64,000 bases of DNA from Myxococcota bacterium (GTDB lineage Bacteria; Myxococcota_A; UBA9042; PHBI01; JAWLBL01): assembly GCA_041687695.1 (NCBI GenBank), contig JAWLBL010000009.1, forward strand, positions 43,634 to 107,633, read 5' to 3'. Positions within the stretch are counted from its first letter, which is position 1; each line of letters starts with the position of its first letter. Shown here piece by piece: positions 9,461-36,783 of the stretch. Below the pieces are notes generated by a model that saw nothing but the letters and a program-made list of their open reading frames with translations, did not search any database and was not told the origin of the DNA. Both the position numbers and the translations under genes were made by a program.

Positions 9461-11668
9461 GTGAGCAAGTCGTCCGTGCTGGTCATCGACACCGACGCCA
9501 AGACCCGGCAGCTGGTGGAGAAGGAGGTCGACCAGTCGCGTTGCGACGTGATCGTCGCCCACGACGTCAAGCTGGGCTTCGACGAGGTGCGCCGCCGGCG
9601 CCCCGCGCTCATCGTCGTCAACGCGGACCTGCCCAAGGGCTGGCGCCTGTGCACCGAGCTCAAGAAGAGCCCGCGCTACGCGCCCATCCCGCTGCTGCTC
9701 GTCAGCGAGAAGGCGACGTCCGAGGTCTTCGCGCAGCACCAGCGCTTGCCGACGCGCGCGGACGTCTACCTGTCCAAGCCGCTCGACTTCAAGTTCGGCC
9801 TGTCGATCGAGCAGTACCTCGACTACCAGGCGTTCGAGGCGGACGAGGACGAGACCATGCTGCTCGATCCCGAGTCGGCGCTGGTCGAGGAGGTCGAGTT
9901 CGAGCTGGGCGACTTCGAGCTGCTCGACGAGCCGTCGCCGCCGCCCACGGCCGGCCGGGACGCGGACGGGCTGCGCGCGCGGGTGACCGAGCTGGAGCGG
10001 CAGCTCCAGGCGCAGCTCGAGAGCGAGGAGGCGCGGCTGCGCGAGCAGGCCCAGGCGGGCTTCAAGCGGCTGAGCGAGCTCGAGAAGGAGCGGGACGCGG
10101 CGCGGGGCGAGCTGCGCGAGGCGCAGGCCGAGCTGGACGTGCTGCGGGCGCAGCTCGAGACGGTCGACGAGGAGCGCGGCGAGGCGGCGGAGCTGGGCGA
10201 CAAGCTGATGGCGGCCGAGCGTGAGACGGCGCGGCTGAAGGTGCGCGTCGAGGAGCTGGAGGCCGCGTCGACCAAGCTGGAGCAGGCGCGGGGCGAGGAG
10301 GCGCGGGAGCTCGAGGCGGCGCGGCAGCGGCTCGAGGCGCTGGAGATCGAGCTGGAGGCGACGGCGGAGCGGGCGCGGGTCGGCGAGGAGGCGCAGATCC
10401 GGGCCGAGGCGGCCGAGAAGGCGCTGGCCGAGGCGCGCGAGAAGGCGGCCGAGGCGGCGCGGGAGGCGGAGGCGGCGCGCGAGCTGGCGGACAACGCCGA
10501 CCAGGCGCGGGTGATGGCGGACCAGGCGACCGAGCAGGCCGAGGCCAAGGCGGCCGAGGCGCAGGCGGCGCGTGAGGAGGCCGCGAGCCGGGCGAGCGAG
10601 GCCGAGGCGGCGCGCGAGGAGCTGGCGGGTGAGCTGGCCGAGCAGACGCGGCTGCGCGAGGAGGCCGAGGCGCGGGCCGAGGAGGCCGGGCGGGCGGCGG
10701 ACGCGAGCCGGGCCGAGGCGCAGGCGGCGAGCGAGCGGGCCGAGCAGGCCGAGGCGCAGGCGGTGGCGGCGGAGGCGCAGCGGCTCGAGGCGGTGGCGCA
10801 GGCCGAGGCGGCGGCCGAGGCGCAGCAGGCGGCCGAGGCGCGGGCCGAGGGGGCGGTCGAGGCGCAGCAGGTCGCCGAGGCGCGGGCGACGGAGGCCGAG
10901 CAGGCGCGCGAGGCGGCGGTCGCGGAGGCGGAGGCCAAGGCCGCGCAGGCGGCCGAGTCGGTGGCGGCGGCCGAGCAGGCGCGCGACGCCGCCCAGGCGA
11001 ACGCCCAGGCGAGCGAGGAGGAGCTGGCGCACCTGCGCGAGCGCCTGGCGACGGTCGAGGACGAGCGCGACCAGGCGCGCGAGGTCATCGCCAAGCTCGA
11101 GGCCGAGGTGCGCAAGGCCAACGACCACGAGCTGGCGATGGCGCAGCACCTGGATGAGGTGCGCGAGCGCTATCAGGCCGTGCGCGAGCAGGTCAAGGTG
11201 AGCGATCTCGGGCTGCGCGAGGCGGTGGCGCAGTACCAGCTGCGCGAGCAGGCGCTGCTCGGGCTCGACGCCGACCACCGCTCGGTGCATCAGTCGACCT
11301 CCGACGCGCTCATCCGCATGGCCGAGGCGCTGCGGGACCTGGCGCTGCGGGCCGAGCAGACGATCCCGACGCCGCCCGACACCAAGAAGCTGCCCGAGTC
11401 GCCCAAGGGCGTCCCGGCGCCGCCGCAGATCCCGGATCTGCCTGGCCCGCCCGAGCGCCACGCCGGCCCGGCGCCCGCCGCAGACGCCCAGCCCGCGCCG
11501 GTCGCCCTGCCGCCCGCAGCGCCGACCGCGGTGCCGCCGCTCGAGGGCGAGGAGGAGCTGGACCTCGACCTCATCGACGAGCTGGACTCGCTCGAGGAGG
11601 AGGACGACGACGGCTCTCGCACCAGCGAGATGCCGCCCGTCCCGCCACCGGCCAGCGTCGAGAAGTAG
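9461..11668 (+). CDS. frzS: FrzS-like pseudo-receiver + long coiled-coil protein
   Basis: Receiver fold with Asn at the phospho-Asp position (LIVVNADL); FAQHQRLPTRADVYLSKPLD resembles the recalled M. xanthus FrzS segment FAQHRKLKAHADEYVAKPVD; followed by >400 aa of E/A/R coiled coil. GTG start after GAGAGG. Confidence 0.7.
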   Translation: MSKSSVLVIDTDAKTRQLVEKEVDQSRCDVIVAHDVKLGFDEVRRRRPALIVVNADLPKGWRLCTELKKSPRYAPIPLLLVSEKATSEVFAQHQRLPTRADVYLSKPLDFKFGLSIEQYLDYQAFEADEDETMLLDPESALVEEVEFELGDFELLDEPSPPPTAGRDADGLRARVTELERQLQAQLESEEARLREQAQAGFKRLSELEKERDAARGELREAQAELDVLRAQLETVDEERGEAAELGDKLMAAERETARLKVRVEELEAASTKLEQARGEEARELEAARQRLEALEIELEATAERARVGEEAQIRAEAAEKALAEAREKAAEAAREAEAARELADNADQARVMADQATEQAEAKAAEAQAAREEAASRASEAEAAREELAGELAEQTRLREEAEARAEEAGRAADASRAEAQAASERAEQAEAQAVAAEAQRLEAVAQAEAAAEAQQAAEARAEGAVEAQQVAEARATEAEQAREAAVAEAEAKAAQAAESVAAAEQARDAAQANAQASEEELAHLRERLATVEDERDQAREVIAKLEAEVRKANDHELAMAQHLDEVRERYQAVREQVKVSDLGLREAVAQYQLREQALLGLDADHRSVHQSTSDALIRMAEALRDLALRAEQTIPTPPDTKKLPESPKGVPAPPQIPDLPGPPERHAGPAPAADAQPAPVALPPAAPTAVPPLEGEEELDLDLIDELDSLEEEDDDGSRTSEMPPVPPPASVEK

Positions 11669-11728
11669 GCGCCCCGCGCTCGGGCCGCGGCCGCTACCGA
11701 GGCGGCGCCGCCGCGGCCTCGCGCGGGG

Positions 11729-12952
11729 TCAGCGGCCGGTCTTGTTCAGGATCTGCTTGGCGAAGCGCGCGACGAAGGCGGGCACGTCCTTGGCGCGCGC
11801 CAGGTTCTGCACGTCGCGGTGGCGCAGGCTGCGCAGGAAGGTCATCGCCTGCGCCGGCGGGCACTTGGGGTTCTTCACCAGCGACAGGCGCACGTTGTAG
11901 TTCTTCGTCCACTCGCGCGTGCGGGCGATGAGGCGGACGATGTCCTCGCCGATGGCCTTGTTCATGGCGAAGGTCGCGATCTCTTTTTCGGTGATGCGCG
12001 GGCTGCGCAGCACGGCCATCGCCACCACGCGCTTGGGATCGCGGACCAGCAGGCTGCGGACGCCGGCGTCGCCCATCATGGCGAGGCGCACCTTCTGGGC
12101 GACCGACATCTCGCCGATGAGCGCCCACAGGGCCTGCTTCTTCTGGTCGTCGGGCAGCTCGCCCGCCTCGCCAGCCCCGGTGCCCTCGCGGAGCAGGTTC
12201 TCGAGGAGGCCCTCGTCGATGCCTTCCTTGTCGGGTTCTTCGTCCGCGTCGACGGCGTCCTTGTCGGCCTGCTCGGCCTCGAGCTCGAGCTCCTCCAGGC
12301 CCTCTTCGTCGACCTCGGGCTCTTCCAGCTCGGCCTGCTCGGCCGGCGTCGGGCCCCGGACCTGGGCCAGCATCTTCTTGTGGTCGGGGAAGAAGGCCTC
12401 GGCCATCGAGCGGAAGCCGACCACGCCCGAGGTGTCGACGCCCGAGCGCAAGGCCGTCTCGATGACCGGCGCGAGCAGCGGGGTCGGGGTCGCCGGGTTG
12501 GCGATGAGGGCCTCGATGATCTTGGGCTCTTCGATGTAGCGCCGCTGGTTCTGCGCGATGGTCTGCAGGATCTCGCCACGCAGCCCCCGGGCCATCCAGC
12601 GGACGGTCTCGTTGTAGGTCGCGGGGTTACGGACCAGCTGCCCGAGGATGGCGCCGTCCTCGTGGAAGACGTGGGCGAACACGTCGAGCACGGCCGGCGG
12701 CAGGGCCGAGGCGGTCAGCTCCTTGATGACGCCGGGCGGCAGGCCGCGCAGCGACTCGGTCGCGGCCTGGGCGATCTCGGCGTTGGGGTCGCGCACCAGC
12801 ACGCCCAACATGACGCCCAGCTTGTCGGGCGGCAGCGGCAGGAGCGCCTTGGCGATGGCGCTCTTGATCTTCTCGGGGCCCTCCGGACCGACGCGCGGCC
12901 GGATGTCTTCGGGGATGGCCTCGACGGGGATCGCCTGACCGGAGATGAACAT
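11729..12952 (-). CDS. Conserved deltaproteobacterial hypothetical protein (helical-repeat, LRV/HEAT-like)
   Basis: ATG 12952 with GAGG RBS; C-terminal motif MSVAQKVRLAMMGD..RSLLVRDP..V..AVL.SP..T..E...A..K...LVKNPKCP. Confidence 0.75.
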   Translation of the reverse strand: MFISGQAIPVEAIPEDIRPRVGPEGPEKIKSAIAKALLPLPPDKLGVMLGVLVRDPNAEIAQAATESLRGLPPGVIKELTASALPPAVLDVFAHVFHEDGAILGQLVRNPATYNETVRWMARGLRGEILQTIAQNQRRYIEEPKIIEALIANPATPTPLLAPVIETALRSGVDTSGVVGFRSMAEAFFPDHKKMLAQVRGPTPAEQAELEEPEVDEEGLEELELEAEQADKDAVDADEEPDKEGIDEGLLENLLREGTGAGEAGELPDDQKKQALWALIGEMSVAQKVRLAMMGDAGVRSLLVRDPKRVVAMAVLRSPRITEKEIATFAMNKAIGEDIVRLIARTREWTKNYNVRLSLVKNPKCPPAQAMTFLRSLRHRDVQNLARAKDVPAFVARFAKQILNKTGR

Positions 12953-19991: not shown

Positions 19992-21424
<1,433 letters not shown>

Positions 21425-21428
<4 letters not shown>

Positions 21429-22849
21429 GCCTTCTCCACCTGTTGCTCGCCCGAACCGTCCCCGGCGTCGACGGGCGCCTCGAACCCGTGACGGTCGGTC
21501 GTCCGCACCACGGTGGCCTCGAGCGCGCCGCGATGCAAGATCACCTGGACCCCCTGCCCCGCCTGCACGTCACCCGACCGCCGCACCACGCGGCCGTCCG
21601 CGGTGCGCACGATAGCATAGCCGCGCTCGAGGCTGGCCGTGGGGCTGAGGTGCCCGAGGGCGCGCGTCAGCTGCGACAGGTGCCGCCGGTGGCGGTCGAG
21701 GTGCGCGCGGCCGCACCGCTCGAGCCGGTGCTGCAGGGCGCCCAGCGACGCGCGCGCCGCCCGCAGACGCACGCGAGGGTGCAGGTTGTGAAGGCGCCCG
21801 CTGGCGGCGGCGCAGCGCTCGCGGGCGCGGCCCACGCGGCGACGCATCGAGGCGTCGAGGCGCTGGACCTGGTCGTCGAGGCGCTGCTGCTGTTCGGCCA
21901 CCAGCCGACGCGGGTCGCCCAGGCGCAGGCGCTCGGCCCGCAGCGCCAGGCGCGCCTGGGCGAGCTGGCGCCGCATCGAGCGATCGAGGCGCTGCGTGTC
22001 GCGGCCCAGCGCGCGGACGAGGTCGTCGAAGGAGGGCACGACGCACTCGCCGGCGGCGGTCGGGGTCGGGGCGCGGCGATCGGCGACCAGATCGCTCAGC
22101 AGGGTGTCGGTCTCGTGGCCGACGGCGCTGACGACCGGCTTGGGGCAGGCGGCGATGGCGCGGGCGACGCGCTCGTCGTTGAAGGCCCACAGGTCTTCCA
22201 GGCTGCCGCCGCCGCGGCCGACGATGATGACGTCGACCTCGGGGTGGGCGGCCAGGCGCTCGAGGCCGCGGACCACGCTGGCGGCGGCGCCGTCGCCCTG
22301 GACCTGGCAGGGGTAGAGGAGCACCCGGGCCGGAAAGCGCCGATGGATGGTCGTCAGGATGTCCTGGATGGCGGCGCCGGTGGCGGCCGTGACGACGCCG
22401 ACCCGCCGCGGCAGGAACGGCAGGGGCCGCTTGCGCTCCTCGGACAGCAGGCCCTCGGCGGCCAGGCGCTGCTTGAGCTGCTCGAGCTGGGCCAGGAGCG
22501 ACCCCAGGCCGGCCTCGGCGACCCGCCGCACGACCAGCTGGTACTTGCCGTGGGGCGGGTAGACCTGCACGTCGCCCCAGGCGGTGATCTGCATCCCGTC
22601 GCGCAGCCGCACCGGCAGGCGCTGCGCCGTCGAGCGCCAGACGACACACGGCAGCTGGGCGCGGGCGTCCTTGAGCGTGAAGTACATGTGGCCCGACGAG
22701 GCCGGCCGCGCGCTGATGACCTCGCCCGTCACCGCCACGTTCGAGAAGGTGCCCTCGAGCGTGGCCTTGATGCCGAAGGTCAGCTCGGAGACGCTGACCG
22801 CCTCGTCGCGCGCGTGCAGTCCAGACGACGGCGCCGACGGCTCATGCAT
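21425..22849 (-). CDS. xseA: Exodeoxyribonuclease VII large subunit
   Basis: SGHMYFTLKD, GAAIQDI, GRGGGSLEDLWAFNDE, SAVGHETD, APTPTAA, LERGYA. ATG at 22849. Confidence 0.95.
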
Positions 22850-34887: not shown

Positions 34888-35337
34888 ATGAAGCGATGGA
34901 CCCTGGCCCTCGGCGCGCTGCTGGCCCTGTCCCTCTCGGCGACGGCGTGCGGCGGCAAGAAGGAGGCGACGCCCCAAGCGGACGCGGCCTCCCAGCAGCC
35001 CGGGACGACGCCTCCGGCGACGGCGGACGCCGGCGAGACGCCCGAGGCCCCCGCCGCGCAGCCGGACGCTGGCGCGGCCCCGGCGCCCGAGGCCCCCGCC
35101 CCCGACGCGCAGACGGGGCAGGTGGCACCGCCCGTGCACGACAAGGCGACGATGCAGCGGGCCTACGTCGAGATCTACTGCGCGCAGCGCAAGGGCGAGG
35201 CGCAGGCCCTGCTCGACCTGTACGCCAAGTACGGCTTCACCGACCCCGCGGCCTGGACCAAGGCCTGGACCGAGCACGCGAAGGACGCGGCCTGGGTCGC
35301 GCAGATCACGTCCGAGGCCATCAGCGCCTGCCCCTGA
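34888..35337 (+). CDS. Hypothetical lipoprotein
   Basis: ATG after AAGGA; lipobox ATAC; Pro/Ala linker; small helical C-terminal domain with two Cys. Confidence 0.75.
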   Translation: MKRWTLALGALLALSLSATACGGKKEATPQADAASQQPGTTPPATADAGETPEAPAAQPDAGAAPAPEAPAPDAQTGQVAPPVHDKATMQRAYVEIYCAQRKGEAQALLDLYAKYGFTDPAAWTKAWTEHAKDAAWVAQITSEAISACP

Positions 35338-35585
35338 GCGCCCACGGGCGCGCGACGCGAGCGGCTCGCTCAGCGCGCTCGGACGCCGCTCGCGCGTTCG
35401 GGCGCGCTCCGAGGCCCTCGCCCCCTCCAGACCCAGCGGCTCGCCGGCCTGACCCGAATCGGCGGCGGGCCCCGGCTCGAACGTCCCGTCAGACGTTCTC
35501 CGCGACGCCGGCCTTCGAGGCCGCTGACAAGCATGTCATAGCTTGACAGAGGGACTTGGAAGAGGGGCTTGGAAGAGGGGCTTCG

Positions 35586-35721
35586 AAAAGGGTGCGGCGT
35601 GTGAGCCGGGGAGACTCACACGCCGCGGGGGGAAGAGGGCTCTGAACGGACAGGGGAACCCGTAGAGCCTTCAGGAGGGGAAGAAGGAGGATTTGGGGAT
35701 AGGACAATTACCACACGCACC
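35586..35721 (-). ncRNA. Putative sigma-54-dependent small RNA with Pxr-like architecture
   Basis: Downstream of a consensus sigma-54 promoter; C/U-rich 5' region; stem-loop 35635-35672 (loop UUCCCCUG); UUCCCCCC linker; 12-bp perfect terminator stem 35594-35626 with UCCCC loop, then ACCCUUUU. Confidence 0.75.
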
Positions 35722-35732
35722 CCAGAGTATCT

Positions 35733-35747
35733 GCAACGTGCGTGCCA
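35733..35747 (-). promoter_or_regulatory. Sigma-54 (-24/-12) promoter
   Basis: Minus strand reads TGGCACG-CACG-TTGC, an exact match to TGGCACG-N4-TTGC. Confidence 0.85.
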
Positions 35748-35792
35748 ACCTCGCTCCCCGCGCCGAGACTGCCTCCGCCGCCCTCCTGGGGC

Positions 35793-35919
35793 GACTCAAA
35801 ATGAAACAGAACGCGCGTTGAATTCCCTTCGGGTCCCCCGAACGGGGGGGAGGGGCTCGGGAGCCGCCGAAAATGGCGGGCTGTCGAGGTGCCACCCATC
35901 CTAGTCTCACATTGAAACA
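35793..35919. promoter_or_regulatory. Candidate enhancer (bEBP) sites G(A/T)CTCA-N3-TGAAACA x2
   Basis: GACTCA-AAA-TGAAACA (35793-808) and GTCTCA-CAT-TGAAACA (35904-919); extra TGAAACA at 35934-40. Confidence 0.5.
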
Positions 35920-35955: not shown

Positions 35956-36783
35956 GTGTCCGTCGTGAGAAACGTCGCCGTCGTCCAGCTCTGCTCGACC
36001 CAGGACATCGAGGCGAACCTGAAGGAGATCGGCCGATACGTCCGCGAGGCGGCGGCGGCGGGCGCCGAGCTGGTCGCGCTGCCCGAGAACTGCGTCTTTC
36101 TGCGCACCGAGGCCGGGACCCAGGCGCCGGTGCAGCCGCTCGAGGGCGAGCTGATGGGCCGCCTGCGCGCCCTGGCCGAGGAGGCGGGCACCTGGCTGCT
36201 GGTCGGCAGCTTCCCCGAGCGGTCACCCGACCCGCGTCGCTACTACAACACGAGCGTCGTCATCGACGGGACGACCCGCGGGGCGCCCATCGTGGCCACC
36301 TACCGCAAGCTCCATCTGTTCGACATCGACATCCCGGGGAGCGAGAGCCAGCGCGAGTCCGACAGCATCATGGCCGGCGACCAGATCGTGTGCGCGGACG
36401 TGGCCGGCATGCGGACCGGGCTGAGCATCTGCTACGATCTGCGCTTCCCGCGCCTGTACTCGGCGCTGGTGGACGCGGGCGCCCAGGTCATCACCGTCCC
36501 GGCGGCCTTCACCGAATACACGGGCAAAGATCACTGGCTGGTGCTGCTGCGGGCCCGCGCCATCGAGACGCAGACCTTCGTGGTGGCGCCCGGCCAGTTC
36601 GGCTGGCACGGCGGCAAGCGGCGCAGCTACGGCAAGAGCGCCATCATCGATCCGTGGGGCATCCCGCTGGCGATGGCGCCCGACCGCACCGGCTGGGTGA
36701 TGGCGCGGCTGGACTTCGAGCACATGGAGTCGGTGCGTCGCTCGCTGCCCTGCGCGCAGCACCGCAGCCCCGTCGTCCGGTGA
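35956..36783 (+). CDS. Carbon-nitrogen hydrolase (Nit1/deaminated-glutathione amidase-like)
   Basis: LPE, YRKLHLFD, ICYDLRFP (E-K-C triad), PAAFT..TG..HW..LLRARAIETQ. Confidence 0.92.
   Translation: MSVVRNVAVVQLCSTQDIEANLKEIGRYVREAAAAGAELVALPENCVFLRTEAGTQAPVQPLEGELMGRLRALAEEAGTWLLVGSFPERSPDPRRYYNTSVVIDGTTRGAPIVATYRKLHLFDIDIPGSESQRESDSIMAGDQIVCADVAGMRTGLSICYDLRFPRLYSALVDAGAQVITVPAAFTEYTGKDHWLVLLRARAIETQTFVVAPGQFGWHGGKRRSYGKSAIIDPWGIPLAMAPDRTGWVMARLDFEHMESVRRSLPCAQHRSPVVR

Follow-up and report, generated by a model that had tools for sequence, protein, structure and literature searches.

A predicted lipoprotein gene of no Pfam family (34888..35337, plus strand) and a divergent gene for a nitrilase-family carbon-nitrogen hydrolase (35965..36783, plus strand; PF00795, E 1.8e-58) border a gene-free gap in the window, which is the whole stretch of 64,000 nucleotides analysed here. 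The preliminary description of this DNA had noticed a sigma-54 promoter on the minus strand that points into the gap, and this promoter is indeed present, with the -24/-12 sequence TGGCACG-CACG-TTGC (35747-35733), and is kept in all members of the family found. The gap had also been placed correctly between the two genes, to which we add the correction that the lipoprotein gene lies on the plus strand and is convergent. Since it converges on the RNA, the RNA is not the 5' leader of a downstream gene. Across the genome the strict sigma-54 consensus has 35 sites, against 1 for the reversed control. We use type A as the name for the predicted small RNA (sRNA) at 35586..35721 (minus strand) together with its homologues, and G000 for the genome of this DNA. 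The RNA would be about 136 nt long, with both ends placed by prediction, and has homologues in 15 of the 18 genomes of the order. We take its +1 to lie at about 35721, from the usual spacing rule for the -12 element.

The only nearly invariant block of our alignment (A3) is the 5' motif GCGUGUGGU (35710..35718). It is followed by an unpaired, C/U-rich leader (35673..35704) with six UCC motifs that resemble anti-Shine-Dalgarno (anti-SD) sequence and are the presumed seeds, as judged from pyrimidine and UCCU counts; the leader contains the words UCCUCCUUC (35691-35683) and CCCUCCU (35679-35673). Next come a middle stem-loop with the loop UUCCCCUG (35638..35669), the position of which is kept among members while its sequence is variable, a pyrimidine linker CUCUUCCCCCC (35627..35637), a 14-bp 3' hairpin with a UCCCC loop and a covarying stem (35594..35626), which may be a terminator or a nuclease barrier, and an ACCC-UUUU tail with a weak U tract (35586..35593). 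The leader, its anti-SD-like words, the UUCCCC-loop stem-loop, the linker and the UCCCC-loop hairpin had all been described before, and all are in the sequence. The 3' hairpin had been called a GC-rich terminator with a U tail; the hairpin stands, but as a terminator it is weak, having only 4 U at 4 nt from the stem, and a terminator scan makes no call at it. After the tail lie three imperfect 13-nt copies, AAGCCCCUCUUCC / AAGUCCCUCUGUC (35545..35583, minus strand). They were seen in G000 alone, the other members printed being without them, and it is possible that they form a read-through extension with more UCC motifs. The minus-strand fold has a z-score of -5.25, with 0 of 200 shuffles as good, and the plus-strand fold one of -2.42. 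A CsrB-like reading of the plus strand was rejected, as no plus-strand promoter was found, the fold is weaker and there is no CsrA.

Upstream of the promoter there are two palindromes with the consensus TGTCTCA-N3-TGAGACA, both missed in the preliminary description, which we predict to be sites of a sigma-54 activator. One is distal (35903..35919) and the other proximal (35792..35808), about 60 bp upstream of the -24 box. With up to two mismatches allowed, GTCTCA-N3-TGAGAC has 36 sites in the 240 bp upstream of 19 members versus 0.125 in shuffles. The sites cluster at about 57-71 and 154-183 bp upstream, and 13 of the 19 members have one at 57-71 bp. Because the consensus had been read off the same sequences, we trained a matrix without G000, using 31 sites from other members only and also excluding the closest homologue. 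When the 7.97-Mb genome was scanned with this leave-out matrix, the distal and the proximal palindrome ranked second and third. For sigma-54 activators, the enhancer-binding proteins (EBPs), TGT-N11-ACA is an established class of motif (PMC4641369). The literature that we searched, outside which most subscription papers lie, holds no account of the type A RNA or its enhancer motif.

Conservation of the transcription unit and the RNA

The order comprises 18 genomes and the class 107, which is probably too few for it to be Myxococcales, the home of Pxr. A pattern made of the promoter and GWGTGG matched in 16 of the 18 genomes of the order, with 2 control matches; the 23 matches read comprise 14 type A units, 5 units of a sibling RNA, called type B here, and 4 unrelated stretches. 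Together with a flipped copy in G001, this brings type A to 15 of 18 genomes. Twelve of these 15 genome members are at the nitrilase locus (11 plus the flipped G001 copy), and G006, G013 and G017 carry a shorter version elsewhere. Type A was not detected in three genomes: G007 and G008, which are 67% and 90% complete and in which the search for the nitrilase gene failed too, and G016, where the nitrilase gene directly adjoins enolase. Among 28 metagenome matches there were 5 type A units (one flipped), 1 type B unit and 22 unrelated stretches. A viral scan gave 9 near-identical matches, all of them unrelated coding sequence, and a pattern that proved too loose gave at least 119 stretches in named genomes, almost all due to chance.

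Of the 17 type A loci tested, 16 have the nitrilase gene and 13 a homologue of the lipoprotein gene. G001 and L206 have the type A unit in flipped orientation between the same flanking genes. The convergent neighbour can differ, being an aminotransferase gene in G014 and enolase in L214. The flips, the moves and the changed convergent neighbours indicate that type A is an independent transcription unit. They also bear on a role in cis, in which the unit would modulate the nitrilase promoter, or terminate or antagonise the lipoprotein transcript, with the RNA as a by-product. Such a role would fit with the overlap between the enhancer sites and the region upstream of the nitrilase gene, and with the 12 of 15 genome members found at this locus. 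We nevertheless regard it as quite unlikely, as the unit is flipped in two cases, has moved away in three genomes and faces varied convergent genes, while the enriched motifs and the covarying stem speak for selection that acts on the RNA itself.

That the region instead encodes a small peptide is hardly credible. The preliminary description had named translation of a 72-amino-acid open reading frame (ORF) as evidence that would speak against an sRNA. The ORF exists (35707-35489, TTG start), but it has no SD sequence, begins 14 nt downstream of the predicted +1 and runs through the hairpin. It is not conserved: the closest homologue has 32 amino acids in the same frame, and the 19 members have no ORF in common. 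Based on the flips, the convergent neighbours, the unconserved ORF and the promoter of its own, type A is predicted to be an independent non-coding unit.

In each of 14 genome members that were checked, the distance from TTGC to the 5' motif (GCGUGUGG) is 13-16 nt. In the 16 full-length members the leader has a pyrimidine fraction of 0.62-0.89, versus 0.29-0.71 at 33 other sigma-54 promoters, and the first 50 nt are largely unpaired (mean unpaired probability, 0.41-0.86). Word counts were made in the leaders of 13 of the 19 members, picked as least redundant. Compared to dinucleotide shuffles, UCC was found 59 versus 41.9 times, UCCU 33 versus 15.2 times and UCCUU 17 versus 4.7 times (0 of 500 shuffles in each case), although these and the other conservation counts against shuffles overstate the significance because the members are kin. 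UCU and CCC are depleted in type A leaders, and the enriched words are the exact complements of the SD core. The sequence of the leader, the number of motifs (3-7) and their spacing vary between members.

A 3' stem of at least 11 bp is present in 16 of 19 members versus 4 of 33 control promoters. The covariation test, carried out on 16 stems with a structure set by the analyst, showed two-sided changes at 6 of 10 pairs, with 20 cells versus 6.5 in shuffled data (0 of 500) and 1-8 in slid controls. At least 4 U within 12 nt after the stem are found in only 11 of 20 members, so the 3' end of type A is uncertain. The sequence of the middle UUCCCC stem-loop is not conserved and varies freely. RNAalifold found only 3 common pairs over the whole type A alignment. 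A covariance model from related genomes, as proposed earlier, could be built (R1), with only 3 base pairs. On the 107 class genomes, R1 returned 11 training members and one false coding hit (G007, L303). It recovers the held-out G001 at E 0.035 and matches neither the sibling RNA nor any of 13 units of other families that are described below. A general helix closing the 5' and 3' ends of type A is not supported, with a mean rank of 9.15 of 20 for the own partner; a closing helix was seen in G011 and in some members without a U tail.

The preliminary description had proposed, as one of two options, a new family of sRNAs with C-rich loops. The existence of a new C/U-rich, anti-SD-type family is well supported by conservation, synteny, the enhancer sites, covariation and the unconserved ORF; the sequence of the UUCCCC stem-loop is unconserved. 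Absence of conservation and covariation in relatives had been named as a reason to give up the idea, and both were found: 15 of 18 genomes have a homologue, and the 3' stem covaries. We estimate at roughly nine in ten the probability that the predicted type A unit is a real sigma-54 sRNA gene. It is very probably an undescribed sRNA family of this uncultured Myxococcota order.

The sibling RNA, the enhancer regulon and candidate activators

Type B is also predicted to be a sigma-54 sRNA. It lies at G000:C19:21446-21590 (minus strand, promoter at 21590) and is found at L050 and L283 as well. A search with the seed AGUUCCUCCU(G/C)AUG gave one match each in 15 of the 18 genomes of the order. One of the 15 is a chance match in coding sequence; the other 14 follow a sigma-54 promoter and lie beside a LysM-murein endopeptidase or a PutB-like gene, which leaves 13 relatives when G000 itself is subtracted, and G001 has a variant. 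The near-invariant seed CAUGAGUUCCUCCU(G/C)AUG complements a perfect SD plus AUG. In its fold, a first stem that varies is followed by a small hairpin, the loop of which is UUCCUC, and by a terminator that covaries and carries a U tail. The palindrome upstream, read by eye as TGACA-N5-TGTC, is different from that of type A. What the two RNAs have in common is limited to the 5' start and a word resembling CCUCCUGAUG, found in a few type A members. For target finding, type B is a better candidate than type A. As a target of its seed, ssb was tried and rejected; the 14-nt match falls in a copy of ssb that has phage-like genes nearby, and 17 other ssb starts do not have it.

The pattern of enhancer plus promoter was found in 10 of 401 genomes of the phylum, all in this class, and in 0 of 323 outside it. 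With one mismatch allowed, it matched in 23 of the 107 class genomes, at 27 sites with 1 control match. These sites belong to 7 type A units, 13 sRNA-like units (defined by a hairpin and a run of pyrimidines or of U in the absence of an SD-ATG) and 5 mRNAs, and 2 are unclear. The sRNA-like units fall into the families f10, f12, f14 and f16 (L353, L362-L367, L369, L373, L375, L354, L360 and L361) and have no Rfam match. In these units UCC (27 versus 29.3) and UCCU (5 versus 7.0) are not enriched, and CCCCA occurs 9 versus 4.0 times (5 of 500). As R1 misses them and UCC is unenriched, homology to type A finds no support. The f10 units are about 230 nt long and have a 5'-3' closing helix, with a compensatory change in the f10 pair.

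At 4 of 4 loci an activator gene directly follows the f12 sRNA-like units. This activator groups, at modest support (87/64), with that encoded at G000:C17:44714-46144, where a PAS histidine kinase gene and an NtrC-type activator gene are divergent (G000:C17:42533-46144 for the pair). Activators of the C17 type had matches in 5 of 5 genomes tested, the match in f10 being weak. The C17 activator is the closest match to the gene next to the f12 units and the best candidate activator. The window itself encodes an NtrC-type response regulator downstream of xseA (19992-21428, minus strand), with an identity of 71-79% within the order and of about 60% in much of the phylum; it may resemble M. xanthus HsfA. 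It is located 11-14 kb from type A in 3 of 5 genomes tested. At E 1e-140 it was found in 0 of 22 f10 and 0 of 13 f12 genomes. As the enhancer is carried by some members of these families, this makes it the weaker candidate.

Several other regions have some of these features. L060 (G036:C473:116-241), in another order, has a sigma-54 promoter, a GCGUGUGUGG start, two hairpins, a U run and no enhancer palindrome, and is possibly an sRNA. At L376 (G029:C304), a sigma-54-like promoter with three enhancer sites precedes a region of several hairpins, which is not C/U-rich and in which the word CAGCAGUAUCGU is repeated. Clusters of weaker palindromes that resemble the enhancer are present at G000:C13:120522-120773 and G000:C9:230189-230237; neither cluster has a consensus sigma-54 promoter in its vicinity, and they may be regulon members or repression sites. 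The consensus sigma-54 promoters at G000:C49:322 and G000:C20:68655 (both minus strand) have no obvious SD-ATG within 85 nt and may start non-coding transcripts. Four weak matches at G000:C18:16253-16795 have a spacing of 174 bp, which suggests a tandem repeat array. In the window, at 9461-12952, genes for a receiver-domain coiled-coil protein and a neighbour lie beside coaX/birA/nadC-like genes, a locus that may resemble frzS-sgmO of M. xanthus.

Comparison with Pxr and other small RNAs

The other option in the preliminary description was a divergent relative of Pxr. In the parts of the Pxr literature available, Pxr (RF01812) is like type A in its phylum, its sigma-54 promoter with an upstream enhancer region and its length of about 110-135 nt (PMC5684412, PMC5568312, PMC10217877, PMC11928866), and also in its C-rich tract, a host without Hfq and a predicted action on mRNAs. 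Pxr has three stem-loops, SL1-SL3, and its C-rich tract is the loop of the conserved SL1, whereas type A has an unpaired, sequence-fluid leader and a conserved 5' GCGUGUGG. The Pxr gene directly follows pxrR/pxrK (PMC5684412, PMC5568312), whereas type A lies beside nitrilase, lipoprotein or enolase genes, with the nearest activator gene 14 kb away. The search that had been suggested, with the Pxr model and all other Rfam models, gave no Pxr match at E<=10 and no other Rfam match at this locus or in 20 member loci. In G000 the best Pxr score was 23.6 bits, for an unrelated GC hairpin elsewhere, and the gathering score of Pxr is 80 bits. A Pxr-bearing genome was sought as a positive control, with counts of 0/151, 0/5 and, by pattern, 0/401 that say nothing on the range of Pxr. 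The idea of a divergent Pxr relative is not supported, there being no Rfam Pxr match, a different fold and no adjacent activator gene. Type A shares the control logic of Pxr, yet it is not a Pxr member.

A much deeper relationship, in which type A and Pxr would have a common ancestor and a PxrR-type activator, is also improbable. Apart from the sigma-54 promoter, the size and the C-rich tract, it would draw on the short members in G006, G013 and G017, which begin with GGUGGUUCCUCCC, one letter off GGUGGUUCCCCCC of the Rfam Pxr consensus; this 13-nt resemblance is the only sequence link to Pxr. The three stem-loops of the sibling RNA, with a UUCCUC loop, point in the same direction. However, the 20 member loci without a Pxr match at E<=10 include these three, and their C-rich tract is paired in a stem and not in a loop. 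There is no pxrR-like gene upstream of type A, and no Rfam match was found beside 20 orthologues of the window activator. Moreover, the C-terminal part of the C17 activator has only 22 close relatives, none of them named from Myxococcaceae.

Sibling sRNAs under the control of sigma-54 and an enhancer-binding protein are known from Qrr1-5, with LuxO, and from CrcZ/CrcY, with CbrB, and CrcZ is the model of a sponge RNA. Both systems need Hfq. They differ from the present RNAs in that G000 is without Hfq, that there is no Rfam match and that the siblings type A and type B have different enhancer motifs.

Regarding the mode of action, the best model for type A, by analogy, may be RsaE and LhrC. 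As far as the accessible text of the sources goes, RsaE and the other UCCC-motif sRNAs of Staphylococcus (PMC2790875) and LhrC of Listeria, which is under two-component control (PMC4132741), have redundant, unpaired UCC(C) or CU-rich sites and act independently of Hfq. Several unpaired SD-complementary motifs, as in this class, are present in type A. RsaE and LhrC belong to another phylum and show no sequence or Rfam match, their motifs are in conserved loops whereas those of type A are in a long leader, and type A is under sigma-54/enhancer control. Cuckoo RNAs of the Alphaproteobacteria also repeat C-rich anti-SD motifs and have variable stems; in the portion of PMC4615179 available they form 2-4 adjacent hairpins with CCUCCUCCC in each loop, whereas the type A motifs are neither in hairpin loops nor invariant. 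The hairpin/CCUCCUCCC layout is absent from the folds and sequences of type A, and there is no Rfam match. Closer to home, M. xanthus has MXnc1 and another candidate sRNA, compared here by description only; both are intergenic and are reported to pair, without Hfq, near the SD of mrpC, pilA and other mRNAs (bioRxiv 10.1101/2025.09.11.675593).

Ribosome-binding sites or a protein as the possible target

In our preferred reading, a two-component signal would activate an NtrC-type enhancer-binding protein, for which G000:C17:44714-46144 is the candidate. This activator would bind the TGTCTCA-N3-TGAGACA sites and open the sigma-54 promoter; sites and promoter are supported by conservation, and the binding is presumed. 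The stand-alone, trans-acting RNA would then expose a single-stranded leader of 35-45 nt with redundant UCC/UCCU seeds, and the strong hairpin, as folding and covariation suggest, would set or protect its 3' end. The seeds may pair with the AGGA/GGAG SD regions of several mRNAs and block loading of the 30S subunit without Hfq. We hold with moderate confidence that type A acts in this way, by SD pairing and an Hfq-independent, multi-seed block of ribosome-binding sites. There are precedents, in the parts of the sources available. In RsaE and LhrC, redundant UCC(U)-type seeds cover SD sequences without Hfq (PMC2790875, PMC4132741), and Pxr and MXnc1 of M. xanthus were mapped by proximity ligation near the SD regions of mRNAs, also without Hfq (bioRxiv 10.1101/2025.09.11.675593).

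Several observations argue against SD pairing. Type A has no invariant seed, unlike most base-pairing sRNAs and the sibling RNA, and the 13 units of other families under the same enhancer show no enrichment of UCC or UCCU. Target prediction, another suggestion of the preliminary description, did not single out a partner: three genome-wide pairing screens, which covered a single genome as a whole, gave no standout target. For ftsA and ftsZ there was no pairing advantage within the own genome, with a mean rank of 7.3 of 15 in 15 genomes and 7.0 of 15 in 6 genomes. Matches of 12 nt to dksA-like and rplJ genes (names judged by eye) are at chance level.

The main rival is a protein-titrating RNA with the logic of CsrB or CrcZ, in which the UCC(U/C) repeats would sequester a pyrimidine-binding regulator of the RRM or KhpA/B type when the sigma-54 activator is on. 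The 99% complete genome encodes no Hfq and no CsrA, and has 5 RRM proteins and 1 KH_KhpA-B match. A sponge would fit with a motif number of 3-7 and free spacing next to a conserved promoter, enhancer and 5' end, with the C/U tails after the stem in many members and the extra copies in G000, and also with the failure of the pairing screens and the ftsA/ftsZ tests to give a target. The enriched words, however, are exactly the SD complements, and redundant CU-rich sites are also the means by which LhrC pairs with its target, according to the available part of PMC4132741. We consider a sponge unlikely, although it is the first alternative to SD pairing. A sponge of the Csr/Rsm or Crc type was rejected, as the transcribed strand has UCC and not GGA, and neither CsrA nor Hfq is present. 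More speculative still is a class-wide module in these Hfq- and CsrA-less Myxococcota, in which a C17-type activator would drive a sequence-fluid, pyrimidine-rich sponge RNA for a C/U-binding RRM/KH protein in at least 5 lineages. If true, the module would add a global post-transcriptional switch of a new type, comparable with Csr/Rsm and Crc and recognising the opposite word, UCC.

Whichever of these modes applies, very few regulatory RNAs have been characterised in the Myxococcota, and Pxr has been described as a recent invention of one suborder. In the uncultured branch studied here there are two other predicted sigma-54 sRNAs, and their enhancer motifs differ. They are regulators of a known kind; this family is new. 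Where covariance models fail, the layout of enhancer and promoter can serve as a search key, and this one layout leads to 13 more sRNA-like genes, spread over four further families within the class. The phylum thus seems to make repeated use of one design, in which C/U-rich sRNAs that do not depend on Hfq are controlled by sigma-54 and an enhancer.
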